Shown here: positions 10,980-26,765 of the stretch, in pieces | How positions within the stretch are numbered: the first letter of the stretch is position 1 | How the letters are laid out: every line of letters begins with the position of its first letter | Assembly: GCA_009777575.1 (NCBI GenBank) | Contig: WRLO01000002.1 | Location: forward strand, 28,386-92,385 | DNA from: Candidatus Cloacimonadota bacterium | GTDB taxonomy: Bacteria; Cloacimonadota; Cloacimonadia; Cloacimonadales; WRIO01 | DNA length: 64,000 nucleotides | Reading direction: 5' to 3' | Translations under genes and position numbers: made by a program | The notes under the pieces: generated by a model | The model's database searches: none | Told to the model about the DNA's origin: nothing | Seen by the model: only the letters and a program-made list of their open reading frames with translations

Positions 10980-11030
10980 CCTATCTTGTCATTCTGAACG
11001 AAGTGAAGAATCTCCATTATCCATTACTTC
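10980..11030. repeat. 51-bp direct repeat of 9112-9162 (TGTC element plus the end of the sorting-domain gene)
   Basis: CCTATCTTGTCATTCTGAACGAAGTGAAGAATCTCCATTATCCATTACTTCA occurs at both positions. Confidence 0.9.
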
Positions 11031-14000
11031 AGCAACATCATTCTTCTCACTTGTGAAAACCCCTCCGTTCTCATCTGATAAAAATAGACACCACTGGCAA
11101 CTTCGCGACCATTTTCATCGGTTCCATGCCAGTCTATACTATGAGAACCTGCTAAAAAGAATTCATTGGTCAAAGTCCTAATTCTTTGACCACGGATATT
11201 AAAAATGTCTATCGAGACTATAGACTCTACTGCTAAATCAAAGGATATATTAGTGATAGGATTGAAAGGATTGGGGAAATTGCTCAATAGCCTTGTTTCG
11301 AGCGGAATTGTGTTTATCGGTGGTTTAGGCTCACTACATTGCAAATAACTGTATATTTGCTTCATGATAGCTTCATCCATCTTTCTATACTCTGCATAAC
11401 TCGCTGGAATGCCGACAGATGCTACTGGAAAACTCCTTTTTCCTTGTTCTGTGAGTTTCTGGATACAAAAAAGCTGAGATTTCATTGCCAATAGCCTTTC
11501 AAGCTCTCCGACTGGGTCTTGGATGATTTCTTCAAACAGCTCGATAGCCTCTTCATATTCCTCTATGAACATCTTGGTCATCGCTGTGACATGCTGTATC
11601 ACTATCGTGAGGTTCGGATGAGATATGTCGAGAAAATCAAAAAAGTCCTCTATATCAAGCTCCAAAACATTGTAAAGATGCGGCATAAGAGCGATACTAT
11701 AAATAGCATAAATTGTGTCTGGATATTCGTCAACTATGCTCTTGAATGCTAAAAGGGCTACATCGTAATCTTCCTCTTCTATTGCCTCTAATCCTCCGTC
11801 ATAAACTCCTCTTGCTGATACACCCGGTTTTTCTTCAAAATGAGCTTCTGAAAACCAAAAACAATCGCTACATGGATAAAAACGACTCAAATCTGCTTTG
11901 GACACATTTAACATTGAGACATTTATATGAGGTCGCAAAGGAGGTGTATATGATCCCATGATACGAAGTAGATAATGGTCATCACCACCAGAGTTTACTT
12001 CATCTATTGCACTTGGGCGGGTTTGATGGGTGAGAGTATTGGGAAAACTAACCCATGCATTATACATCGCAGATATCTCAGCAGAACCATTGTTCGAGAT
12101 TATTGATGGTCCAGAGATAACACTTTGCTGCTCAGATAGACTATAAAACCCGTATTCTAAGTTATCTTGTATTATTGTATCAAGGAGGTGAACGCGAGTT
12201 CCCTGCCATACTTCAAGCCCCGACCCAGCATTCTCGTTGATTTCAGCATTGTATACTCTATTCTGAAAAATTGTGTCTCGATTTAAAGACCCCCCAATAT
12301 TAAAAGATGGAGAGTTATCTATGATAAGACCGGTAGAACCATTGTCGAGGATATATAACTCATCAGCATCTATGATACTGTTTTTCAAAGTTATGCCTTT
12401 AGCGTTTTCTTCATATACGAGATTGCGAGCATACAATTTTGAATTCGATGTCAGGTATAATTCATGAATTGAGGTGATTGTGGTGTCATAAAAATTAAGA
12501 GATGATTCTATTGCATAAAAAGAACCTATATTTTCTACCATTACATCTTCAAATTTTACACTACTATTGATAAATAAAAAATTATGTATTTCTGTTATCA
12601 AATTTGATGCAATGGAACTTATTGTGAAATCATTTTCTATATTAGGTTGAGAGTCTATTATCACAAACCCATTGAATCTATTACCTGTTCTGCTCAGAAT
12701 TTCAGTCTCTTCACCTAAAATCATTCTACTATTATCTATGATGATTAAATCTTTGCGGTCAGATAAATCATTTATCTCAGTTATATCTATCAAACTACCC
12801 TCAGCAGAACCATATATTCTACTCATTCCCTCCATACTAAACAAACTATTGTTATTGAAAACGATGTTTTGAGCGTGATTCATTACTATATCGGTATCAT
12901 TTATCTCCAAACTCGAATTGTAAAAAGCTGCTGAACCATCTACTACCAACTCGATTTTTCCGTTATCTAAAATGATACTACTGTTTTGAACTAACAAGAA
13001 ACTGTTCTCACCACTGATTGAGATAGAACCATTTCCTAAATTGATTTCTGAAGATATTATTTTCAATTCTCCAAACCTGATTTGAAATCCATAAAATTTA
13101 TTCAGAGCTTGATTTTGATTTTCATTGATGATAGAGTTGGTTATAGTCAAAATAGCCTCATTATCGATGACATACATCTTGTTTATAGCAAACTCCTCAC
13201 CACTCATGATTGTGTCCTCTGTAATCCAGATCTGGTCTCCCAGTATCCTCTGCACTGGATTGAGCATATTCAATCTGCCACCAGTTATAGTACTGTCCTG
13301 CATTGCAGGGATTCGATCCACTCCATCAAGGATATATTGCTTCATGAGTAAAGCAAGTCCGCTAGGATTACCTTCATATTCATCAAGCAAATCATCAGGG
13401 GCGATTTGATAGAGTAATCCGATTAGACCTGTTACATGAGGAGCAGCCATAGAAGTGCCAGAAGATTCATAGTACCAACCAACTCCATTATAATAATTGA
13501 TTGTTGATAATATGTAATCTCCTGGTGAACCTAGATGAACTGAATTTGAGCCATAATTAGAATTAATTGCAAACTCATCTTTATTGTTTGTGGATGATAC
13601 ACTTAAAATATATTGTGATTTTATAGTAGCAGGTATCATTTTATTTTCGGGCAAATCATTATTACCAGATGAATTTCCCGCTGCTGCAATTGTCATTACT
13701 CCAGCCTGCCCCATAAGTTCAATAATATATTCCATTATATCAAGTTCATATTCTCCAAAAGAAATGAATCCAAAAGATGAATTTACAGCCACGATATATT
13801 CTCCGCCCTGAATGAATATATCATTGTAATCGAGTCTTTGTTCTAACACATATTGATATGCCATAATTACCCAAAAGACTGTCCCCCATCCTCTATCCAT
13901 TGGAAGCCCAAATGAAATTGGCATCATTGTAACCACAGGTAATATTTTTATATTCCTTGCTATTCCTGATATTCCCAGATTATTGTTACTAATAGCTCCT

Positions 14001-14614
14001 GCTATCCCTGCCACATGAGTGCCATGCGAGCCAATATATAAAGAATCGTTACTTGTTATTACATTCCATCCTTTATACCAATTTATATCTGGATGATTTG
14101 GTGCATATCCATTATCAGCTATGGCTAAAACTACATCGTTGTCAAAAATTATTTCTTGTTGAAATAAACTTAAAAGTTCCCAGACATATTGAAAACTAAT
14201 GTCAGCATTAGATAAACCTTTTATATCATTTACTATCTGACTAGTATTTTTTAATGCCCATTGATCTGGATATAATGGGTCATTAGGATAGTTTCCAAGA
14301 CTCTCTATATAATAATTAAATTGGGCAAGGTGAACATTTGGGTCTTGTCTCATCCTTTCAAGAATATCATCGTCTGATATCAAATTTTGGTTGTAATAAA
14401 AAAGATGAGTATTAAAACGTTCTGAATATCTGTGACTTTCGTCAATTACTAATTCAAATTGAGAATATGACGAAATAAAATTTATTAGATCATCACCTCT
14501 GGTGTTGTTGTTTAAATCAAGGATAATTTGCCCTGGTATACTATTTGATGAACTCAAACAGTATATCAAAACCGACAAAAACAATAAAAAATTAAATTTT
14601 TTACAAAAAATCAT
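11024..14614 (-). CDS. Secreted S8 (subtilisin-like) serine peptidase with beta-helix-like region, TPR-like helices and C-terminal sorting domain
   Basis: Catalytic triad motifs IADNG, HGTHVAG and SGTSMAAPHV; NFPNPFNP..ASGVYFYQM..MMLLK tail; GGAGG RBS. Confidence 0.9.
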   Translation of the reverse strand: MIFCKKFNFLLFLSVLIYCLSSSNSIPGQIILDLNNNTRGDDLINFISSYSQFELVIDESHRYSERFNTHLFYYNQNLISDDDILERMRQDPNVHLAQFNYYIESLGNYPNDPLYPDQWALKNTSQIVNDIKGLSNADISFQYVWELLSLFQQEIIFDNDVVLAIADNGYAPNHPDINWYKGWNVITSNDSLYIGSHGTHVAGIAGAISNNNLGISGIARNIKILPVVTMMPISFGLPMDRGWGTVFWVIMAYQYVLEQRLDYNDIFIQGGEYIVAVNSSFGFISFGEYELDIMEYIIELMGQAGVMTIAAAGNSSGNNDLPENKMIPATIKSQYILSVSSTNNKDEFAINSNYGSNSVHLGSPGDYILSTINYYNGVGWYYESSGTSMAAPHVTGLIGLLYQIAPDDLLDEYEGNPSGLALLMKQYILDGVDRIPAMQDSTITGGRLNMLNPVQRILGDQIWITEDTIMSGEEFAINKMYVIDNEAILTITNSIINENQNQALNKFYGFQIRFGELKIISSEINLGNGSISISGENSFLLVQNSSIILDNGKIELVVDGSAAFYNSSLEINDTDIVMNHAQNIVFNNNSLFSMEGMSRIYGSAEGSLIDITEINDLSDRKDLIIIDNSRMILGEETEILSRTGNRFNGFVIIDSQPNIENDFTISSIASNLITEIHNFLFINSSVKFEDVMVENIGSFYAIESSLNFYDTTITSIHELYLTSNSKLYARNLVYEENAKGITLKNSIIDADELYILDNGSTGLIIDNSPSFNIGGSLNRDTIFQNRVYNAEINENAGSGLEVWQGTRVHLLDTIIQDNLEYGFYSLSEQQSVISGPSIISNNGSAEISAMYNAWVSFPNTLTHQTRPSAIDEVNSGGDDHYLLRIMGSYTPPLRPHINVSMLNVSKADLSRFYPCSDCFWFSEAHFEEKPGVSARGVYDGGLEAIEEEDYDVALLAFKSIVDEYPDTIYAIYSIALMPHLYNVLELDIEDFFDFLDISHPNLTIVIQHVTAMTKMFIEEYEEAIELFEEIIQDPVGELERLLAMKSQLFCIQKLTEQGKRSFPVASVGIPASYAEYRKMDEAIMKQIYSYLQCSEPKPPINTIPLETRLLSNFPNPFNPITNISFDLAVESIVSIDIFNIRGQRIRTLTNEFFLAGSHSIDWHGTDENGREVASGVYFYQMRTEGFSQVRRMMLLK

Positions 14615-14652: not shown

Positions 14653-16722
14653 TTATCTTAGCAGGATCATTCTTCTTGTTTCATTATAGTCTTCTGTCAC
14701 CATTGTATAGAAATAAATACCACTACTCACTCTGAGATTTGAACTATCTACTCCAGTCCAAAATATCTCATATTTTCCAGCTGGTAAAAGATTATTTATC
14801 AATGTTATTATTCTCTGACCTCTTATGTTGAATATTTCTATTGAGACAAATCCATTTCGAGCAAGGGAAAAATTTATCGTTGTTTGTGGATTGAAAGGAT
14901 TCGGAAAATTTCCCAAAAGCAATGTCGTATAAGAGATGATTTCGTCATTTTCATCGCTAGTTTCAGGTTTTGCTATAACTATATTTGATGGCTCAGACTC
15001 TCCATCTATCTCTCCACCCCATATTGCAGTGACATGATATTCGTAATAAATATCATTCTCCAATCCGATATCGGAATACTCTTTATATGGGCTTAATATT
15101 ACATCTATTTTTTTATCATCTCGAAAAACATTGTATCCAATCACAGTTCCATATTTTTGAGTATTGGGGATTTCCCATGATAGATTTACTACTCCATCAC
15201 CGGCAATAGCTTGCAGATTCAATGGTGGACTAAATAATGGCATTATGATTGATGTTCCCGCCGATCCAAATTCACCATCATCATAATATGCTATTATCCA
15301 ATAAGAATATTTTGTATCTGTATCCAGATTAAGATCAATGTAATTCATATCTGTTGTTTGATTTACAAATATGTGATTTCGATAAAGTATAAATCCATTT
15401 AAACTTGCCTGAATATTGCTGTCGTAATTAATAGAAAAATCAGATTTGAGCCATGTTAATACTACATCATGGTCTAAAATTTTTCCTGTAAAATCGACTG
15501 GCGCTTTTCTCTTGTTATCCATACTCCGTAAAAAAGGATAACCATTATTGAGTCTTTCGTCTATCCACCATATATTTTCTAAATCCCAATCATTATTTAT
15601 AAAAGTAGAATTTTGTTTCATTTCTAAAGTAGTTAATCCGAAATTATTATTTATTGTATGGTTCTGCCCTTCTACTAAATTAAATGGTTCTAAAACTCCT
15701 GTAGTTTCAGTATTCCAAAAATTATGTCTGATATTTGAGGGATTTTGAGAAGAACTTATTCGACCGATAAGCCCACTTATATTTTGAAAGTCTGTATAAG
15801 ATACTACATAACAAAACTGGACATCTGATAATGACATTGAGCCGATTAATCCTCCATTCCTTTCTCTTTCTATAGAGCTAAAAATATCTCCATAAAAAAA
15901 TGAATTTTTCAATGTGGTTTGTCCGGTATAGCCTATTATTCCACCTAAAGATGATGTTTCACTCATGAAATCATAAATAGTTACTTTTGAATAACAATAC
16001 TCTATATGAGACCTTTGAGCATTCCCCACCAGGCTACCAACAATTGAAGTAATAGATATTTCTGGATATGACGTTCCTACTAAAAGTTCTCCAGAAACTT
16101 TACAATTTTCTATTTTGCTTTCAAATGCGCATCCAACTAAAACGCCTATATATGATTGGTAGGTTCTATTTTCTTCCAATTTAACGGTTGCATTTTCTAC
16201 TCTGAGATTTTTTATTGTAGCAAAATCTAAATAACCAAATAAAGCTGGGTGAACAATGGCAGGAATATCAAAATAACCTTCATGATAATATAATTCATCA
16301 GGGGTATTGATATGCAAATTGCTTATTTTATGATAATCTCCGTCATATATACCTAAAAATGATAACACTTTTGCATTCATTGTTGCTACCTCAAAATAAT
16401 TGCCTATCGGATGAAATCCCTTGCCTTCATTCCAGTTTATAGTCTCAGAAGCATCTATGTCAGCTGTTTGCAAGAAATAATATCTATATACCTCCCAATT
16501 ATTATCTAGTAAAGCAAAACCCCACACATCAGGTGTCTCTGACAACCACCTCAAATTCGCCAGATTCGCTATTAAAAAAGGGGTTTCTTCTGACCCTGCG
16601 TTTTCCTCATGAAAATTTGAGGGTGGTTCTGCAAGGGTTTCGGTGTGTAAAGAAAACAAACTAACACAAAAAAACATTGCGATTAATAACACAAAAAAAA
16701 CATTTTTTCTGTCTATTCTCAT
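14653..16722 (-). CDS. Secreted GLUG-repeat/FN3 protein with C-terminal sorting domain (cassette C)
   Basis: GSEETPFLIANLANL, FLQTADID, YDG, G(G/S)LVG repeats, PPLNL..VNLSW FN3, NFPNPFNP tail. Confidence 0.85.
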   Translation of the reverse strand: MRIDRKNVFFVLLIAMFFCVSLFSLHTETLAEPPSNFHEENAGSEETPFLIANLANLRWLSETPDVWGFALLDNNWEVYRYYFLQTADIDASETINWNEGKGFHPIGNYFEVATMNAKVLSFLGIYDGDYHKISNLHINTPDELYYHEGYFDIPAIVHPALFGYLDFATIKNLRVENATVKLEENRTYQSYIGVLVGCAFESKIENCKVSGELLVGTSYPEISITSIVGSLVGNAQRSHIEYCYSKVTIYDFMSETSSLGGIIGYTGQTTLKNSFFYGDIFSSIERERNGGLIGSMSLSDVQFCYVVSYTDFQNISGLIGRISSSQNPSNIRHNFWNTETTGVLEPFNLVEGQNHTINNNFGLTTLEMKQNSTFINNDWDLENIWWIDERLNNGYPFLRSMDNKRKAPVDFTGKILDHDVVLTWLKSDFSINYDSNIQASLNGFILYRNHIFVNQTTDMNYIDLNLDTDTKYSYWIIAYYDDGEFGSAGTSIIMPLFSPPLNLQAIAGDGVVNLSWEIPNTQKYGTVIGYNVFRDDKKIDVILSPYKEYSDIGLENDIYYEYHVTAIWGGEIDGESEPSNIVIAKPETSDENDEIISYTTLLLGNFPNPFNPQTTINFSLARNGFVSIEIFNIRGQRIITLINNLLPAGKYEIFWTGVDSSNLRVSSGIYFYTMVTEDYNETRRMILLR

Positions 16723-16856: not shown

Positions 16857-19244
16857 TTATTTCAACAATACCATCCTTCTCACGGTAGTAAAATCTCCAG
16901 CTCTCATCACATAAAAATACAACCCGCTTCCGACATCGCGACCATATTCGTCCTCTCCATTCCACAATACTTGATGAAATCCTACATTCATGCTCTCATT
17001 CAACAGATTCCTAACTCTTTGTCCACGAATATTGTATATATCAATCGAAACGATTGATTCTACGGCGATATTAAACTTTATTATAGTCTCAGGATTAAAT
17101 GGATTAGGAAAATTACCTATCAATTCTGTTATCAAGGGTATCTCAATATCTTCAAACTCTGACGCATAAACTTCTATTTCAACAGAAACATGCTCTGATT
17201 CACCACCGTTGTAAACAGCACTTACACTATAGACATATTCCCCAACAGGCACATAAGCTTGTATATATCTATAATTTGACAATCCTGATGCTTGGCGAAA
17301 AGTAAGAAATTCTTCGTTACGATAGATATTATAACCTTTCAGGCTTTCTACTTCAGAGACATTCCTTTTAACTGAATTGTTTATTCTCCTTGAGGTTCTA
17401 TTTTCACCATCATGATTTTCTCTATAAGGTGGTTTCCAGTTTATTATCACTGTATTCCCATTTACACTACTGACACTACCTTCCAATTCTGTAGGTGGTA
17501 GCATCATAAAATCCAAAACTATATTCACAATATTTGTAGGCTCAGATACCCCTTCTATCGCACCACCCCATACTGCTGTGATATAATATTCATGTTCATC
17601 ACCGTTTTTTAAACCTTTATCTATGTATTCAATTTGCCACCCTTTATAAGGGAGGGATAATACCTCATCTATCAACACCCCGTCCCTATAAATATTATAT
17701 CTTAATAATTCACCATATTTTTGCACATCTGAAGATTCCCAAGATAAAGTCACCTCTCCATCACCTGCCCAAGCCACTAAATTTTTTGGTGGACTATAAA
17801 CAACCGTGATGATAGACAAATCAGTCGCTCCAAAATCTCCATCCTCATAAAGAGCTATCAAGAAATAATTGTATTTCTCATCCAGCTCTATGTCTGTATC
17901 AATATAAGATAATTCGGTTGTTTCTACTAAAAATACATCGTTTCGATATAATCTGTAATTGATGGAGGATTTGTAAAATTGTCCAAAGCTTTGATGGAAA
18001 CCATTATCCATTTCATTGCCAGGCTCCTCCCATGTCAAAACTATGTCACCATCCACTATCTCTGCATTAAAATTCCCTGGCGATTTTCTCGCATCTATCA
18101 TACTTCTCAGATACGGATATCCACTATTTATATAGGGTTTCATAAACCATATATTCTCAAAGTCCCATCCATTGTCAATATATGTGGATTTTTGTTTCAT
18201 CTCTTCGGTTGTTTTTCCAAAATTATCGATCACTGTTCCATGTCCTATCTCTACATTAAAGAGCTGAGATACACCAGTAGTCTCCTCATCCCAAAGATTG
18301 TTTGTGATGATGGAAACTCCCCATGTATGATGAATTTCCCCAATAAAGCTATTAATATTAGTAAATATAACATCTGAAACCACATAACAATTACTGATTC
18401 TTGAACGACTAGCGTATCCTACAAGTCCACCATTACTATCTCTTTCGATTGAGCTGTTAATGAAACCATTAAAATATGAATTTTCTATTGTAGTATTACT
18501 AGATCCACCAACAAGTCCACCTGTTATATTACTATAGTTTGTAGCGTCTATAATTATAAAAGATGAATAATTATTTCTTATGGTTGAATTTATAGCATTA
18601 CCCACTAAACCTCCTGCAATCGTCCAAGATGCCCCAATCATTTGTCCAGTAACAGAGACATTTTCTATTAATCCACCTTGAATAATTCCAGCCAAAGGAC
18701 CAACTTCATTGTATAGCAAATCTTCATTAGGTAAAATACTTACATTATCTAGTCGTAGATTTTTTATTGTGCCACCTAGTATTACTCCAAACATGCCAGG
18801 GACAGGAACACAATAAATTACAATATTGTGTGGACAGTTAATAAATAAATTTTTTATAGAATACCCATTTCCATCATAAACTCCCATGAAACCCTTATCA
18901 TTACCTGCAGAACCAGTCAGATTTCTTACTCCTATAGGTCTAAAACCACAACCATCTTCCCAATAGATAGTCTCTGTAGCATCAATATCTGCAGTTTGCA
19001 AAAAATGATACCATAAAAAATTACTACCTGATACCCATTCACACCACACATCAGGCGTCTCCGACAACCATCTCAGATTCGCCAGATTCGCTATTAAAAA
19101 AGGATTTTCTTCTGACCCTGCGTTATCATCATGAAAATTTGAGGGTGGTTCGGCAAGGGTTTCGGTGTGTAAAGAAAACAAACTAACACAAAAAAACATT
19201 GCGATTACTAACACAAAAAAAACATTTTTTCTGTCTATTCTCAT
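16857..19244 (-). CDS. Secreted GLUG-repeat/FN3 protein with C-terminal sorting domain (cassette A)
   Basis: Same architecture with three FN3-like units; paralog of 21698-24097. Confidence 0.87.
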   Translation of the reverse strand: MRIDRKNVFFVLVIAMFFCVSLFSLHTETLAEPPSNFHDDNAGSEENPFLIANLANLRWLSETPDVWCEWVSGSNFLWYHFLQTADIDATETIYWEDGCGFRPIGVRNLTGSAGNDKGFMGVYDGNGYSIKNLFINCPHNIVIYCVPVPGMFGVILGGTIKNLRLDNVSILPNEDLLYNEVGPLAGIIQGGLIENVSVTGQMIGASWTIAGGLVGNAINSTIRNNYSSFIIIDATNYSNITGGLVGGSSNTTIENSYFNGFINSSIERDSNGGLVGYASRSRISNCYVVSDVIFTNINSFIGEIHHTWGVSIITNNLWDEETTGVSQLFNVEIGHGTVIDNFGKTTEEMKQKSTYIDNGWDFENIWFMKPYINSGYPYLRSMIDARKSPGNFNAEIVDGDIVLTWEEPGNEMDNGFHQSFGQFYKSSINYRLYRNDVFLVETTELSYIDTDIELDEKYNYFLIALYEDGDFGATDLSIITVVYSPPKNLVAWAGDGEVTLSWESSDVQKYGELLRYNIYRDGVLIDEVLSLPYKGWQIEYIDKGLKNGDEHEYYITAVWGGAIEGVSEPTNIVNIVLDFMMLPPTELEGSVSSVNGNTVIINWKPPYRENHDGENRTSRRINNSVKRNVSEVESLKGYNIYRNEEFLTFRQASGLSNYRYIQAYVPVGEYVYSVSAVYNGGESEHVSVEIEVYASEFEDIEIPLITELIGNFPNPFNPETIIKFNIAVESIVSIDIYNIRGQRVRNLLNESMNVGFHQVLWNGEDEYGRDVGSGLYFYVMRAGDFTTVRRMVLLK

Positions 19245-21541
19245 TTCTCCTCCAAATTTGAGTCAACTCTGAAACTCATTTTTTTAACCTTATGGTATAT
19301 TTTTTATTTTATATTTTTTGTCAACAATTTTTTTTTCTTAATTTTCAAATATTTTCTAATAATTTAAATAAAATTATTTCAACAATACCATCCTTCTCAC
19401 AGTAGTAAAATCTCCAGTCCTCATCACATAAAAATACAACCCGCTTCCGACATCGCGACCATATTCATCCTCTCCATTCCACAATACTTGATGAAATCCA
19501 GCTTTCATGCTCTCATTCAACAGATTCCTAACTCTTTGTCCACGAATATTGTATATATCAATCGAAACTATTGAATCTATGGCGACATTAAACCTAATCA
19601 TAGTCTCAGGATTGAAAGGATTAGGAAAATTGCCTACCAATTCTGTCATCAAGGGTACCTCAATATCTTCAAACTCTGATGCATAAACTTCTATTTTTAC
19701 TGAAACATGCTCTGATTCACCACCGTTGTAAACAGCACTTACACTATAGACATATTCCCCAACAGGCAAATCATGTTCTATGAACGATGTTTCTGAAGTG
19801 CTTAGCTCTGTCAATGGCATTTCATCTCGATAGATGTAATATCCTATTGGATAACTATCTGGTGCCATCCAATTTAATGTAACAGAGTAATTATCTACAC
19901 TACCAACAAGATCTGTCGGAGGAAGAATATCCTCTAAGAGTATCATTTTCACAGTATTCGAGGGTTCAGACTCCCCTTCAGGATTTTCATACAAAGCTGT
20001 GATAACATAATTATATTCGACATAGTATTCTACATCCTCATCTAAATAAAAAAGGGTTTCTAATGGTAATAAATCAGATAAAACCTCACCTTCCCTATAA
20101 ACTATATATCCTAAAATATCTCCAAAATTTGCTTTTTGAGGTGCTTTCCATGTCAGAAATATATCATTACCCACAATTGATGCATCTAAATCCTTGGGTG
20201 AATAAAATGCTGGGATATAGATATTAATAATATCTGCTCCTAAATCTCCGCTTTCATAGACTGCAAAAAGAAAATATGTATACTTCGTATCAACATCGGC
20301 ACTAACATCAGTAAAAGATAAATCTGAAGTTTCTGTCAATAATATACCGTTGCGATACAGTTTGAAACCTATAAAATTTGATTTTATCTGAGAGCTATGA
20401 AATGAATTATAACTCAAATTCCAAGTGAGTTTGATATTATTGTCTATTATTTCTGCAATTAGATTCATCGTTGGCAAAGAAATGTTTTTTGTTTCTCGAA
20501 AAAAAGGATACCCGTCATTGATTTCGGGGTGTATATACCATACATGTTCAAAGTCCCAACCATTTTCTATATACATAGTGACTCGTCTCATTTCTTGTGT
20601 AGTTTTTCCAAAATTATTTTCTATTGTATGTTCAGAGCCTTGTATCTCATTGAAAGGATTTAAAATTCCCGTAGATTCTATATTCCAAAAATTGTTTGAG
20701 ACCGTAGAAGAAGGTTCAATGGTTATTTTTCCTATTAATCCACCTACATTATTCATTTCTAAATTACTCGAGACATAAGAATAGGAAACTACCGAGTTCT
20801 GCATACTACCAACCAATCCGCCATATTCAATAGCTTCAGAATCAGAAACGATATTTCCCAAAAAAAAGGAATTCGTTATTGACGAACTTACAATACCAGC
20901 CGCTATCCCCCCTACAGTCGAGGGATAAGTGGGAAGAAATTCATTATTAACAAAAATGTTTCCACTTACAAAACAATTAATTATGGATGAACTACCCGCT
21001 GATGCAACTAAACCTCCAAAAAAATGTGAGTCGAGTCCAGAAATTATAGCATTGATATCTTGTAAATATACATTTTTTACAGTAGATTCGTATATAAGAC
21101 CAAAAAGTGTTGAATTTAAAACCATAGAAGGTATTTCATCTTCATTATATTGATTTACATAGAGATTGTTAATAGAAAAATGATTACCATCATACTCTCC
21201 TATGAATAATCTTAAAGTAGGGCTTGAGCGGCCTATTGGCACAAATCCAATTCCACCATGCCAAACTTTTGTTTCAGATGCATCAATATCAGCAGTTTGA
21301 AGAAAATAGTTCTTTCCTAAAACAATTAACTCTCCAGTAATCAGATCAAATGTGAAGTCTCCCCAAACAGAACGAGTCTCCGACAACCACCTCAAATTTG
21401 CCAGATTTGCTATTAAAAAAGGATTTTCTTCTGACCCTGCATTTTCTTCATGAAAATTTGAGGGTGGTTCGGCAAGGGTTTCGGTGTGTAAGGAAAACAA
21501 TCCCACATAAAAGACCATTGCGATTACAAACACAAAAAAAA
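18809..21541. repeat. About 2.7-kb direct repeat, copy 1 (copy 2 at 23662-26394)
   Basis: Constant offset of 4853 for the gene starts, the B/B' stop and the shadow ORFs; identical wherever compared; first mismatches at 18808 and 21542. Confidence 0.9.
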
Positions 21542-21563
21542 AATTTTTTCTGTCTATTCTCAT
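19374..21563 (-). CDS. Secreted GLUG-repeat/FN3 protein with C-terminal sorting domain (cassette B)
   Basis: Same architecture; differs from 24227-26416 only at residue 8 (F vs I). Confidence 0.87.
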   Translation of the reverse strand: MRIDRKNFFFVFVIAMVFYVGLFSLHTETLAEPPSNFHEENAGSEENPFLIANLANLRWLSETRSVWGDFTFDLITGELIVLGKNYFLQTADIDASETKVWHGGIGFVPIGRSSPTLRLFIGEYDGNHFSINNLYVNQYNEDEIPSMVLNSTLFGLIYESTVKNVYLQDINAIISGLDSHFFGGLVASAGSSSIINCFVSGNIFVNNEFLPTYPSTVGGIAAGIVSSSITNSFFLGNIVSDSEAIEYGGLVGSMQNSVVSYSYVSSNLEMNNVGGLIGKITIEPSSTVSNNFWNIESTGILNPFNEIQGSEHTIENNFGKTTQEMRRVTMYIENGWDFEHVWYIHPEINDGYPFFRETKNISLPTMNLIAEIIDNNIKLTWNLSYNSFHSSQIKSNFIGFKLYRNGILLTETSDLSFTDVSADVDTKYTYFLFAVYESGDLGADIINIYIPAFYSPKDLDASIVGNDIFLTWKAPQKANFGDILGYIVYREGEVLSDLLPLETLFYLDEDVEYYVEYNYVITALYENPEGESEPSNTVKMILLEDILPPTDLVGSVDNYSVTLNWMAPDSYPIGYYIYRDEMPLTELSTSETSFIEHDLPVGEYVYSVSAVYNGGESEHVSVKIEVYASEFEDIEVPLMTELVGNFPNPFNPETMIRFNVAIDSIVSIDIYNIRGQRVRNLLNESMKAGFHQVLWNGEDEYGRDVGSGLYFYVMRTGDFTTVRRMVLLK

Positions 21564-21697
21564 TTCTCCTCCAAATTTGAGTCAACTCTGAAACTCATTT
21601 TTTCACCTTATGGTATATTTTTTTATTTTTTCTTTTTTTGTCGACAAATATTTTATTTTTATTTTTCAGATATTTTTTTGAATAATTTTAAATAAGA

Positions 21698-24097
21698 TTA
21701 TTTCAACAATACCATCCTTCTCACGGTAGTAAAATCTCCAGCTCTCATCACATAAAAATACATCCCACTTCCGACATCGCGACCATACTCATCCTCTCCA
21801 TTCCACAATACTTGATGAAATCCAGCTTTCATACTCTCATTCAACAGATTCCTAACTCTTTGTCCACGAATATTGTATATATCAATCGAAACTATAGATT
21901 CTACAGCGATATTAAACTTAATCATAGTCTCAGGATTGAAAGGATTAGGAAAATTGCCTACCAATTCTGTCATCAAGGGTACCTCAATATCTTCAAACTC
22001 TGACGCATAAACTTCTATTTCAACAGAAACATACTCAGATTCACCACCGTTGTAAACAGCACTTACACTATAGACATATTCCCCAACAGGCACATAAGAT
22101 TGTATATATCTATAATTTGACAATCCTGATGCTTGGCAAAAGAAAAGAAAATCTTCATCACGATAGATATTATATCCTTTCAGGCTTTCTACTTCAGAGA
22201 CATTTCTTTTAACTGAATTGTTTATTCTCCTTGAGGTTCTATTTTCACCATCATGATTTTCACTATAAGGTGGTTTCCAGTTTATTATCACTGTATTCCC
22301 ATTGACATTACTAACACTACCTTCCAATTCTGTAGGTGGTAACATCATAAAATCCAAAACTATATTCACAATATTTGTAGGCTCAGATACACCATCTATC
22401 TCGCCACCCCATACTGCTGTGATATAATATTCATGTTCATCACCGTTTTTTAAACCTTTATCTATGTATTCAATTTGCCTCGCTTTGTAAGGCGGGGATA
22501 ATACCTCATCTATCAATACTCCATCCCTATAAATATTATACCTTAATACTTCACCATATTTTTGCACATCTGAAGATTCCCAAGATAAAGTTACCTCTCC
22601 ATCACCTGCCCAAGCTACTAAATTTTTTGGTGGACTATAAACAACCGTGATGATAGACAAATCAGTCGCTCCAAAATCTCCATCCTCATAAAGAGCTATC
22701 AAGAAATAATTGTATTTCTCATCCAACTCTATGTCTGTATCTATATAAGATAATTCGGTTGTTTCTACTAAAAATACATCATTTCGATATATTCTGTAAT
22801 TGATGGAGGATTTGTATAATTGTCCAAAGTTTTGATGGAAACCATTATCCATTTCATTGCCAGGCTCCTCCCATGTCAAAACTATGTCACCATCCACTAT
22901 CTCTGCATTAAAATTCCCTGGCGTTTTTCTCGCATCTATCATACTTCTCAGATACGGATACCCATTGTTTATAAAAGGTTTCATAAACCATATATTCTCA
23001 AAATCCCAACCATTATCAATATAGGTCGTAGCTTGTTTCATCTCTGCTGTTGTTTTTCCATAATTACCACTCACAGTGCCTTGCCCTGTCTCTACATTAA
23101 ATAGTTGTGTTATACCAGTAGTCTCCTCATCCCAAAGATTATTTGTGATGATAGATGGAAATCCTGTTGGGTTAGGGTGTGAAATCCATCCAATAAAGCT
23201 ATTAATGTTTATAAATGAATCTTCTGAAACTACATAACAATTACGGATCCTTGATTCGCTGGCTCTTCCTACAAGACCACCATATCCATCGCTTTCAATT
23301 GAGCTGTTAATGAAACCATTAAAATATGAATTTTCAATTGTAGAATTATATAAATAACCTACAAGCCCACCTATTCTAATACTATGACTTGTAGCATCAA
23401 TAATAAATAAAGATGAATAACTATTTCTTATCGTTGTATGTGATGCATCTCCAGCTAAACCTCCTGTTAATCTTGAGGATGCTTCTATAACCATTTGCCC
23501 AGTAACAGAGACATTTTCAATTAATCCACCTTGAATTATTCCCGCTAAAGGTCCGACTTGATTATAATGCAAATCTTCATTAGGTAATATATTTACATTT
23601 TCCAGTCTTAGATTTTTAATAGTGCCATTTTGTATTACACCAAACATGCCAGGGACTGGGGCACAATAAATTACAATATTGTGTGGACAGTTAATAAATA
23701 AATTTTTTATAGAATACCCATTTCCATCATAAACTCCCATGAAACCCTTATCATTACCTGCAGAACCAGTCAGATTTCTTACTCCTATAGGTCTAAAACC
23801 ACAACCATCTTCCCAATAGATAGTCTCTGTAGCATCAATATCTGCAGTTTGCAAAAAATGATACCATAAAAAATTACTACCTGATACCCATTCACACCAC
23901 ACATCAGGCGTCTCCGACAACCATCTCAGATTCGCCAGATTCGCTATTAAAAAAGGATTTTCTTCTGACCCTGCGTTATCATCATGAAAATTTGAGGGTG
24001 GTTCGGCAAGGGTTTCGGTGTGTAAAGAAAACAAACTAACACAAAAAAACATTGCGATTACTAACACAAAAAAAACATTTTTTCTGTCTATTCTCAT
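21698..24097 (-). CDS. Secreted GLUG-repeat/FN3 protein with C-terminal sorting domain (cassette A')
   Basis: First 145 aa identical to cassette A, then a divergent GLUG core. Confidence 0.87.
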   Translation of the reverse strand: MRIDRKNVFFVLVIAMFFCVSLFSLHTETLAEPPSNFHDDNAGSEENPFLIANLANLRWLSETPDVWCEWVSGSNFLWYHFLQTADIDATETIYWEDGCGFRPIGVRNLTGSAGNDKGFMGVYDGNGYSIKNLFINCPHNIVIYCAPVPGMFGVIQNGTIKNLRLENVNILPNEDLHYNQVGPLAGIIQGGLIENVSVTGQMVIEASSRLTGGLAGDASHTTIRNSYSSLFIIDATSHSIRIGGLVGYLYNSTIENSYFNGFINSSIESDGYGGLVGRASESRIRNCYVVSEDSFININSFIGWISHPNPTGFPSIITNNLWDEETTGITQLFNVETGQGTVSGNYGKTTAEMKQATTYIDNGWDFENIWFMKPFINNGYPYLRSMIDARKTPGNFNAEIVDGDIVLTWEEPGNEMDNGFHQNFGQLYKSSINYRIYRNDVFLVETTELSYIDTDIELDEKYNYFLIALYEDGDFGATDLSIITVVYSPPKNLVAWAGDGEVTLSWESSDVQKYGEVLRYNIYRDGVLIDEVLSPPYKARQIEYIDKGLKNGDEHEYYITAVWGGEIDGVSEPTNIVNIVLDFMMLPPTELEGSVSNVNGNTVIINWKPPYSENHDGENRTSRRINNSVKRNVSEVESLKGYNIYRDEDFLFFCQASGLSNYRYIQSYVPVGEYVYSVSAVYNGGESEYVSVEIEVYASEFEDIEVPLMTELVGNFPNPFNPETMIKFNIAVESIVSIDIYNIRGQRVRNLLNESMKAGFHQVLWNGEDEYGRDVGSGMYFYVMRAGDFTTVRRMVLLK

Positions 24098-26394
24098 TTC
24101 TCCTCCAAATTTGAGTCAACTCTGAAACTCATTTTTTTAACCTTATGGTATATTTTTTATTTTATATTTTTTGTCAACAATTTTTTTTTCTTAATTTTCA
24201 AATATTTTCTAATAATTTAAATAAAATTATTTCAACAATACCATCCTTCTCACAGTAGTAAAATCTCCAGTCCTCATCACATAAAAATACAACCCGCTTC
24301 CGACATCGCGACCATATTCATCCTCTCCATTCCACAATACTTGATGAAATCCAGCTTTCATGCTCTCATTCAACAGATTCCTAACTCTTTGTCCACGAAT
24401 ATTGTATATATCAATCGAAACTATTGAATCTATGGCGACATTAAACCTAATCATAGTCTCAGGATTGAAAGGATTAGGAAAATTGCCTACCAATTCTGTC
24501 ATCAAGGGTACCTCAATATCTTCAAACTCTGATGCATAAACTTCTATTTTTACTGAAACATGCTCTGATTCACCACCGTTGTAAACAGCACTTACACTAT
24601 AGACATATTCCCCAACAGGCAAATCATGTTCTATGAACGATGTTTCTGAAGTGCTTAGCTCTGTCAATGGCATTTCATCTCGATAGATGTAATATCCTAT
24701 TGGATAACTATCTGGTGCCATCCAATTTAATGTAACAGAGTAATTATCTACACTACCAACAAGATCTGTCGGAGGAAGAATATCCTCTAAGAGTATCATT
24801 TTCACAGTATTCGAGGGTTCAGACTCCCCTTCAGGATTTTCATACAAAGCTGTGATAACATAATTATATTCGACATAGTATTCTACATCCTCATCTAAAT
24901 AAAAAAGGGTTTCTAATGGTAATAAATCAGATAAAACCTCACCTTCCCTATAAACTATATATCCTAAAATATCTCCAAAATTTGCTTTTTGAGGTGCTTT
25001 CCATGTCAGAAATATATCATTACCCACAATTGATGCATCTAAATCCTTGGGTGAATAAAATGCTGGGATATAGATATTAATAATATCTGCTCCTAAATCT
25101 CCGCTTTCATAGACTGCAAAAAGAAAATATGTATACTTCGTATCAACATCGGCACTAACATCAGTAAAAGATAAATCTGAAGTTTCTGTCAATAATATAC
25201 CGTTGCGATACAGTTTGAAACCTATAAAATTTGATTTTATCTGAGAGCTATGAAATGAATTATAACTCAAATTCCAAGTGAGTTTGATATTATTGTCTAT
25301 TATTTCTGCAATTAGATTCATCGTTGGCAAAGAAATGTTTTTTGTTTCTCGAAAAAAAGGATACCCGTCATTGATTTCGGGGTGTATATACCATACATGT
25401 TCAAAGTCCCAACCATTTTCTATATACATAGTGACTCGTCTCATTTCTTGTGTAGTTTTTCCAAAATTATTTTCTATTGTATGTTCAGAGCCTTGTATCT
25501 CATTGAAAGGATTTAAAATTCCCGTAGATTCTATATTCCAAAAATTGTTTGAGACCGTAGAAGAAGGTTCAATGGTTATTTTTCCTATTAATCCACCTAC
25601 ATTATTCATTTCTAAATTACTCGAGACATAAGAATAGGAAACTACCGAGTTCTGCATACTACCAACCAATCCGCCATATTCAATAGCTTCAGAATCAGAA
25701 ACGATATTTCCCAAAAAAAAGGAATTCGTTATTGACGAACTTACAATACCAGCCGCTATCCCCCCTACAGTCGAGGGATAAGTGGGAAGAAATTCATTAT
25801 TAACAAAAATGTTTCCACTTACAAAACAATTAATTATGGATGAACTACCCGCTGATGCAACTAAACCTCCAAAAAAATGTGAGTCGAGTCCAGAAATTAT
25901 AGCATTGATATCTTGTAAATATACATTTTTTACAGTAGATTCGTATATAAGACCAAAAAGTGTTGAATTTAAAACCATAGAAGGTATTTCATCTTCATTA
26001 TATTGATTTACATAGAGATTGTTAATAGAAAAATGATTACCATCATACTCTCCTATGAATAATCTTAAAGTAGGGCTTGAGCGGCCTATTGGCACAAATC
26101 CAATTCCACCATGCCAAACTTTTGTTTCAGATGCATCAATATCAGCAGTTTGAAGAAAATAGTTCTTTCCTAAAACAATTAACTCTCCAGTAATCAGATC
26201 AAATGTGAAGTCTCCCCAAACAGAACGAGTCTCCGACAACCACCTCAAATTTGCCAGATTTGCTATTAAAAAAGGATTTTCTTCTGACCCTGCATTTTCT
26301 TCATGAAAATTTGAGGGTGGTTCGGCAAGGGTTTCGGTGTGTAAGGAAAACAATCCCACATAAAAGACCATTGCGATTACAAACACAAAAAAAA
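23662..26394. repeat. About 2.7-kb direct repeat, copy 2
   Basis: Matches 18809-21541. Confidence 0.9.
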
Positions 26395-26416
26395 TATTTT
26401 TTCTGTCTATTCTCAT
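24227..26416 (-). CDS. Secreted GLUG-repeat/FN3 protein with C-terminal sorting domain (cassette B')
   Basis: Near-exact copy of cassette B at offset 4853. Confidence 0.87.
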   Translation of the reverse strand: MRIDRKNIFFVFVIAMVFYVGLFSLHTETLAEPPSNFHEENAGSEENPFLIANLANLRWLSETRSVWGDFTFDLITGELIVLGKNYFLQTADIDASETKVWHGGIGFVPIGRSSPTLRLFIGEYDGNHFSINNLYVNQYNEDEIPSMVLNSTLFGLIYESTVKNVYLQDINAIISGLDSHFFGGLVASAGSSSIINCFVSGNIFVNNEFLPTYPSTVGGIAAGIVSSSITNSFFLGNIVSDSEAIEYGGLVGSMQNSVVSYSYVSSNLEMNNVGGLIGKITIEPSSTVSNNFWNIESTGILNPFNEIQGSEHTIENNFGKTTQEMRRVTMYIENGWDFEHVWYIHPEINDGYPFFRETKNISLPTMNLIAEIIDNNIKLTWNLSYNSFHSSQIKSNFIGFKLYRNGILLTETSDLSFTDVSADVDTKYTYFLFAVYESGDLGADIINIYIPAFYSPKDLDASIVGNDIFLTWKAPQKANFGDILGYIVYREGEVLSDLLPLETLFYLDEDVEYYVEYNYVITALYENPEGESEPSNTVKMILLEDILPPTDLVGSVDNYSVTLNWMAPDSYPIGYYIYRDEMPLTELSTSETSFIEHDLPVGEYVYSVSAVYNGGESEHVSVKIEVYASEFEDIEVPLMTELVGNFPNPFNPETMIRFNVAIDSIVSIDIYNIRGQRVRNLLNESMKAGFHQVLWNGEDEYGRDVGSGLYFYVMRTGDFTTVRRMVLLK

Positions 26417-26765
26417 TTCTCCTCCAAATTTGAGTCAACTCTGAAACTCATTTTTTCACCTTATGGTATATTTTTTTATTTTTACTTTTTTTGTCAACAA
26501 TTATTTTATTTTTTATTTTTCAAATATTTTTGGATAATTTTTATAGCTTATTGCATAAGCCTAATCTCATTGTGTCTTGAGAATTATACGAAAACAACTC
26601 CTATCATCGCTAAAATTGTACCGTTAATTTGAGATATATCAGAGATGGTATCAATGATATACTCCGTAGGAGTCGTGGTTTGGTAGAAAAAGTGACGCCC
26701 CCCACCAACCATCTTTATTCCGTTAGGATCCGTCTCCGAAAAATATATTTTCACAAAATCATACT

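Follow-up and report, generated by a model that had tools for sequence, protein, structure and literature searches.

Silent divergence along two tandem GLUG-family genes of a Cloacimonadota bacterium points to a mosaic with an older beta-helix block

Families of surface proteins exported through T9SS, the type IX secretion system, are known to recombine. The rgpA, kgp and hagA genes of Porphyromonas gingivalis exchange adhesin domains, and Flavobacterium psychrophilum carries a tandem array of leucine-rich repeat (LRR) genes. In such families, near-identical ends are copied between paralogs, central binding regions stay distinct, and the mosaics have sharp breakpoints. We find the same arrangement in two tandem genes, here called A and A', in a 64,000-nucleotide stretch (the window) of contig WRLO01000002.1 (positions 28,386 to 92,385) from a Candidatus Cloacimonadota bacterium. 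Unlike the described families, A and A' belong to Cloacimonadota, encode a GLUG beta-helix and have their breakpoints at the linkers of a single domain, and they are known here from sequence alone.

Two other groups of proteins invite comparison. Solenoid binders built of LRRs, such as plant NLR proteins with their xxLxLxx motif and the lamprey VLRs, likewise place variable residues at a fixed register of each rung beside an invariant motif. In the classic LRR cases, the ratio of nonsynonymous to synonymous divergence (dN/dS) exceeds 1 at the variable positions, or a dedicated assembly mechanism makes the diversity. In A and A', by contrast, the variable stripe has a dN/dS of 0.4-0.7 and silent sites are equally diverged. 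The order of subdomain, linker and short GLUG beta-helix (PF07581 / Peptidase_M26_N PF05342) is shared with the M26 IgA1 proteases (IgA1P of S. pneumoniae, 6xja/6xjb; G. haemolysans, 7uvk) and with BACOVA_03286 of B. ovatus (3n6z). In pneumococcal IgA1P, the N-terminal domain is described as a short beta-helix joined to a small subdomain, and it binds the IgA1 Fab (PMC7695701).

The original prediction for this locus attributed dense differences between A and A' to diversifying selection on one face of a beta-solenoid. We find that the differences do cluster on one side and that silent divergence changes abruptly at both ends of the segment that encodes the helix. A and A' therefore probably form a mosaic made by gene conversion or non-allelic recombination, in which an old helix block with a weakly constrained stripe lies between younger, homogenised strata.

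Three strata of divergence in A and A'

The two genes belong to an array of five tandem genes of one family on the minus strand of the window, in the order C, A, B, A', B'.

14653-16722, minus strand: gene C, 689 aa, fifth array member with the same architecture; Glug score 49.4 bits
16857-19244, minus strand: gene A, an open reading frame (ORF) of 795 aa; Pfam Glug 39.3 bits, TIGR04183 31.5 bits; putative signal peptide, N-subdomain (~30-145), GLUG beta-helix and cap (146-~381), FN3-like region and T9SS type A sorting domain
19374-21563, minus strand: gene B; Glug 24.3 bits
21698-24097, minus strand: gene A', 799 aa, tandem paralog of A; Glug 49.9 bits, TIGR04183 36.4 bits
24227-26416, minus strand: gene B', which differs from B at 1 of 2,190 nt
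18809-21630, minus strand: repeat copy 1, with codons 1-145 of A, a 129-nt spacer, the complete gene B and the 67 nt upstream of it
23662-26483, minus strand: repeat copy 2, with codons 1-145 of A', the spacer, the complete gene B' and the 67 nt upstream of it
18120-18808, minus strand: divergent block of A, residues 146-375, the whole six-rung beta-helix and most of the C-terminal cap
22961-23662, minus strand: divergent block of A', residues 146-379
16857-18119, minus strand: intermediate stratum of A, with the end of the cap, the FN3-like domains and the sorting domain; its counterpart in A' is 21698-22960

Residues 1-145 of A and A' are 100% identical, as the original prediction had observed. 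The codons for this head lie within a 2,822-nt repeat whose two copies, compared at an offset of 4853, have a single mismatch, at 21542. In the block that follows, 141 of the 690 aligned nucleotides are mismatched (20.4%), 56 of the 230 aligned residues are replaced, and 12 gap nucleotides fall in two in-frame indels (4 indel codons). The boundaries proposed earlier for this dense divergence of the GLUG repeats, 18120-18808 and about 22960-23661, are right to within 1 nt, and the pairs quoted for it are all present (GGLVGNAINS/GGLAGDASHT, GGLVGGSSNT/GGLVGYLYNS, GGLVGYASRS/GGLVGRASES and FIGEIHHTW/FIGWISHPNPT). The scaffold of GGLxG and TIxNxY is retained, as the prediction described for GGLxG and IxNxY. 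The FN3 and tail regions are indeed very similar: in the intermediate stratum 59 of 1,263 nt (4.7%) differ, and 25 of 420 alignment columns differ.

Why does one part of the gene differ so much from its flanks? Silent sites supply the main evidence. By the Nei-Gojobori method, synonymous (dS) and nonsynonymous (dN) divergence are both 0 in the head, 0.65 and 0.15 in the block (dN/dS 0.22), and 0.14 and 0.027 in the tail (dN/dS 0.19). A model with two breaks, which scored silent differences only in codons with the same amino acid in both copies, gave rates of 0, 0.29 and 0.076 for head, block and tail, with maximum-likelihood breaks after alignment columns 145 and 379. Its likelihood ratio of 78.5 was reached in 0 of 200 permutations. 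Silent differences in block and tail differ with a Fisher p of 8e-10, and the strata are also visible in 100-nt windows. The abrupt changes of synonymous divergence at both breaks argue for a mosaic. Moreover, dS in the block is raised along with dN, a rise at silent sites that selection on the protein cannot cause.

Site patterns in the tail tell the same story for a third gene. A, A' and B differ from one another by a few per cent over their last ~130 codons, and sites there at which A' matches B or A matches B interleave with sites at which A matches A'. Such mutually incompatible patterns are expected of a mosaic. Asymmetric evolution of one copy was rejected: a Tajima relative-rate test with C as outgroup counted 6 unique changes in one copy against 11 in the other, which is not significant (chi-square 1.47). 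Gene C is the nearest other paralog of the A/A' block, with 42-45% aa identity in a tblastn search of the whole metagenome-assembled genome (MAG).

Within the block, a stretch of ~38 nt at 18440-18490 of the window (A codons ~252-265), which encodes EN SYFNGFINSS, is the same in A and A' and has the lowest local dS of the block. It is only marginally improbable by chance (estimate ~0.03) and may be a micro-conversion tract or reflect strong constraint.

The arrangement recurs in a second pair of genes. Contigs C180:1-1353 and C168:1-1347 start at the same GLUG-gene codon and are 89% identical. Their dS is 0-0.05 in the head, 0.14-1.0 in the helix, 0.04 after the helix and 0.2-0.5 in the tail, which repeats the A/A' pattern of identical head, diverged helix and conserved tail. 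These two sequences represent either two paralogs or two strain alleles at which the assembly broke.

Where did the block come from? No donor closer than 45% aa identity was found for the block of A or A' in the MAG (by tblastn), in 5.8 billion public proteins or in 20 related genomes. The nearest match was 39% among the public proteins and 41-44% among the related genomes. Protein A itself is on record in no other assembly. The mosaic is thus marked by its breaks and site patterns and not by an identified donor. Since none was found, we take the block, an older stratum by its dS, to be either a part of an old duplication that escaped conversion or sequence imported from a relative not yet sampled.

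Because the source is a MAG of 198 contigs (3.76 Mb, 91% complete), the structure of the array itself deserves scrutiny. A and A' might be alleles of one locus from two co-occurring strains, falsely strung together through a collapsed 2.8-kb unitig. Short reads hardly span a near-exact repeat of this length, and many members of the family lie on short contigs with breaks at shared sequence, with C180 and C168 beginning at the same codon. Against this, the tail and block of A' are flanked by the repeat on both sides and the tail differs by 4.7% from that of A, so that the assembly graph needs real junctions from repeat to A' to repeat; this argues for a real tandem structure. Additionally, beyond 21630/26483 the regions upstream of B and B' diverge, each copy is an intact ORF, and the indels are in-frame only. 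We therefore consider false joining very unlikely as an account of the pair, although the copy number of the array could be wrong. The conclusions on dS and dN would be unchanged even for alleles.

Dense, local variation in a domain of a surface protein is also the one feature that A and A' share with the targets of diversity-generating retroelements (DGRs). Besides this dense variation, programmed hypermutation of the GLUG repeats by a DGR or a similar targeted mutator has in its favour that the genome contains three reverse-transcriptase genes. These RVT_1 genes lie on short contigs (C133:2710-3381, C195:2258-2851 and C173:3519-3860; L001-L003), and none is in the window or on the contig of the array. 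No template copy is present, the next-nearest paralog being 42-45% identical. Substitutions in the block show a symmetric spectrum (T>A 28, A>T 23, G>A 18, A>G 15), with none of the adenine bias of a DGR, and 77 of the 141 changes (55%) are at third codon positions, over half of all changes being silent there. The spectrum and the lack of a nearby reverse transcriptase exclude targeted mutagenesis for practical purposes, and we give it almost no credence.

The beta-helix module and its variable stripe

To which fold does the block belong? We built an AlphaFold2 model of residues 1-400 of A from an alignment of 32 family members, of which 23 are modules of this genome and 9 are homologs from databases. 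The model has a predicted local distance difference test (pLDDT) score of 89.3 and a predicted template modelling score of 0.86. It shows a small subdomain, six rungs of ~30 residues that each contain strands a-d, a helical cap, and a disordered linker from ~385. The pLDDT dips at residues 141-150 and 381-400. Both breakpoints seen at silent sites fall, in the model, on the linkers at either end of the beta-helix unit.

Foldseek matched the model to 3n6z (E 1e-6, TM 0.55/0.64), to 6xja (E 3e-5) and to the N-terminal domain of the Gemella IgA1 protease. A profile search of the PDB sequences gave 3n6z at E 2e-18 and IgA1P at E 5e-18. Over all matches to the M26 N-terminal domain and BACOVA_03286, Foldseek E values range from 1e-6 to 2.5e-4 with TM 0.49-0.64, and profile E values from 2e-18 to 5e-18. 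The block is thus a beta-helix like that of the structural prototype 3n6z, and the first 380 residues make up one module, for which BACOVA_03286 and the N-terminal domain of the M26 IgA1 proteases are homologs.

The homology does not extend to the catalytic parts. A, A', B and C lack the middle and C-terminal catalytic domains of the M26 proteases and carry FN3-like domains and a T9SS sorting domain instead. None of the four contains an HExxH motif or matches a peptidase domain. The NCBIfam ZmpA/B/D models score 16-20 bits against a cut-off of 3000, and PF05342 stays below its gathering score (19.6 and 24.3 bits vs 27.7). With catalytic domains and the HExxH motif missing and PF05342 below its cut-off, the four are not M26 peptidases and are predicted to be binding-module proteins. 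By analogy, a binding role for the helix of A and A' is plausible, since the corresponding domain of IgA1P binds its substrate Fab.

The replacements between A and A' are not spread evenly over this module. Counting offsets from the last G of GGLxG over the six rungs, and using this register together with DSSP, we find replacements in 16 of 30 cells at offsets -9..-5 (strand a) and in 13 of 24 cells at +1, +3, +4 and +5 (the outward residues of strand b and the b-c turn). They are sparse (7 of 54 cells) at +6 to +14, which span strand c, the turn that follows and strand d as far as its middle, and GGLxG itself has one in 30 cells. The stripe made up of -9..-5, +1, +3, +4 and +5 holds 29 of the 56 replacements within 52 of 236 positions (odds ratio 7.3). 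By this register, the A/A' replacements wrap one corner of the solenoid.

This stripe was chosen after the fact on the A/A' pair, and its valid independent test is therefore the set of four other paralog pairs, in which it is again enriched for replacements (odds ratios 3.5, 2.3, 2.1 and 6.4; p from 0.02 to 3e-8). The columns that differ between A and A' are also the variable ones among the 30 remaining family members, with a mean entropy of 2.96 vs 1.98 bits (Mann-Whitney p = 3e-10). A stripe term added to family entropy in a logistic model gave a likelihood-ratio test p of 0.003; since the stripe was defined on the same pair, we do not count this value as evidence. Replacements on family-variable columns are predicted by weak constraint alone, and the recurrence of the stripe across the family and in four pairs fits weak constraint.

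Selection, recombination and the age of the block

Had selection favoured change on the stripe, dN/dS should say so. The original prediction proposed site-wise estimates across orthologs. No A-type ortholog above 44% identity was found in any collection searched, which makes such estimates impossible, and three close paralog pairs were pooled by rung register instead. In the stripe, dN/dS is 0.57 for A/A', 0.64 for C180/C168 and 0.40 for C18/C197; in the scaffold, the values are 0.13, 0.26 and 0.17, respectively. For the four residues before and five after each glycine motif, the flanks named in the prediction, dN/dS is 0.46. The five residues after GGLxG give 0.65 and the rest of the block 0.16. 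Setting stripe dN over block dS gives 0.70 in both close pairs, with bootstrap 95% intervals of 0.42-1.13 (A/A') and 0.39-1.20. When the three pairs were pooled by offset, position +1 had a ratio of nonsynonymous to synonymous p-distances (pN/pS) of 1.38 (uncorrected p = 0.07, 27 offsets tested; not significant), +3 had 0.91, and every other offset was below 0.71.

No defined class of sites (block, named flanks, stripe or single offsets) has a dN/dS significantly above 1 in these pairwise comparisons, which have low power: at a dS of 0.65-0.8 they have little power for a few selected sites. Diversifying selection is not supported for the block, and the stripe is weakly constrained. Positive selection at +1 and +3 is possible. 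The prediction of selection on one solenoid face thus divides in two. The clustering on one side holds; the selection is not supported, given a dN/dS of 0.22 and a dS of 0.65 in the block. Of the two results that were to count against it, dN/dS well below 1 was observed, and a scatter of substitutions was not, as the replacements line up on the stripe.

Could true diversifying selection still be at work? On that account the stripe, and above all the ladder of +1 and +3 positions, is exposed to ligand or phage, and conversion tracts that equalise the helices are removed by selection, which would keep the helix diverged amid homogenised surroundings. The concentration of replacements on a stripe of one register would follow from it, as would stripe codons with two or three nucleotide changes (for example GGA TCT AGT vs TAT TTA TAT), the pooled +1 ratio and the recurrence of helix-only divergence in C180/C168. 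The family is also most expanded here, with 53 segments against 0-28 in 20 relatives. However, dN/dS in the block and in the stripes of all three pairs (0.40-0.64) never exceeds 1, and the 4-5-fold rise of block dS cannot be caused by selection at the protein level. The excess at +1 fails correction for 27 offsets and is inflated by uncorrected p-distances, and the stripe is simply the set of least conserved columns of the family. We therefore think diversifying selection an unlikely explanation.

The mosaic reading suggests a simple course of events. The array evolves through non-allelic homologous recombination. This is seeded at one end in the leader and N-subdomain, which are conserved across the family, and at the other in the tail with its FN3 and sorting domains, and its tracts stop where the block that encodes the helix begins and ends. 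The younger tract, 2.8 kb long, is recent enough to carry a single mismatch, and an older one comprises the FN3 domains and tail, with a dS of 0.14. Tracts may end where they do because 20% divergence blocks extension of the heteroduplex or because converted helices are selected against. The helix would be a binding module whose variable stripe sets the target of each paralog, as its homology to the IgA1P N-terminal domain suggests. Within the block, divergence follows the constraint profile of the family: purifying selection is strong on the scaffold, made up of the GGLxG turn and strands c and d (dN/dS 0.13), and a stripe (strand a, +1/+3 of strand b, b-c turn) is nearly free to change (dN/dS ~0.4-0.7). 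We infer that the stripe is the surface in contact with the ligand and that A and A' differ in what they bind.

Several points weigh against a mosaic with nothing more than weak constraint. Two pairs keep just the helix diverged with homogenised flanks, and this is also predicted by selection against the erasure of a distinct specificity. The stratum without differences may partly be an effect of assembly, with one collapsed unitig used twice. For gene A there is one close pair, and its pairwise averages are compatible with a few sites at dN/dS above 1; the pooled ratio of 1.38 at +1 and the upper bootstrap limits of 1.13-1.20 for the stripe point the same way. Finally, the placement of replacements on one side comes from rung register and DSSP, not from measured solvent exposure.

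A stronger proposal is that the GLUG family is a repertoire of binding modules maintained by recombination, in which the conserved leader and N-subdomain at one end and the FN3 and sorting-domain tail at the other would serve as homology arms, whole helix cassettes delimited by the two linkers would be kept distinct or pass between tandem copies, and the +1/+3 ladder, as the surface that sets specificity, would be under episodic positive selection. We consider this combination quite unlikely. If it were true, the GLUG repertoire would be a surface-variation system.

The array in its genome and family

What are the five proteins, and how do they reach the surface? In each of them a hydrophobic N-terminus is combined with GLUG motifs that exceed the Pfam cut-off, with FN3-like domains and, at the C-terminus, with a sorting domain. 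A starts with the hydrophobic sequence MRIDRKNVFFVLVIAMFFCVSLFSL, and the model shows a helix over residues 5-25. A, A', B and C all score above the gathering cut-off of Pfam Glug (PF07581, 20.5 bits) and so belong to the GLUG family. The T9SS type A sorting domain TIGR04183 exceeds its curated cut-off of 23 bits in A and A'. For PF18962 (cut-off 27), C is above at 30.2, and A and A' are below at 17.8 and 19.6.

The genome encodes T9SS machinery in the form of a SprA-type gene; the search covered SprA and no other component. SprA_N (PF14349) matches with 108 bits at C2:78842-80137, inside a window ORF at 47568-53816 (plus strand, ~2,082 aa). The gene for this outer-membrane translocon of the T9SS and the array of cargo genes are ~21 kb apart. 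Immediately downstream of the array, at 11024-14614 on the minus strand of the window, a 1,196-aa ORF shows subtilisin-type motifs by eye (HGTHVAG, SGTSMAAPH) and a C-terminal sorting tail that resembles that of the array family. Judging by these motifs, it is probably another T9SS cargo, a serine protease.

The N-module family is large. This genome has 53 matching segments, in ~30 or more genes. Twenty genomes of the same family or order have 0-28 segments each, so that the expansion here is the largest of the set. One GLUG-family paralog, at C12:15836-16960, has a single in-frame TAG and is possibly a pseudogene. The threonyl-tRNA synthetase encoded in the window has best matches of at most 74% identity, all in MAGs of Candidatus Cloacimonadota, which indicates a poorly sampled lineage of this phylum. 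The array family is a large, lineage-expanded group of T9SS cargo with a binding module like the N-terminal domain of IgA1 protease and no protease.

What does the pattern in A and A' mean? Evolution of this kind is ordinary in tandem genes for surface proteins and opens up no new mechanism. Variable residues on a fixed scaffold can mimic diversifying selection when what varies is mostly age along the gene: the flanks are renewed by conversion tracts, and a single structural domain stays old. For the annotation of Cloacimonadota, our work defines a family of T9SS cargo and the variable stripe of its module, and it offers positions +1 and +3 of each rung as the first candidates for residues that determine ligand specificity.

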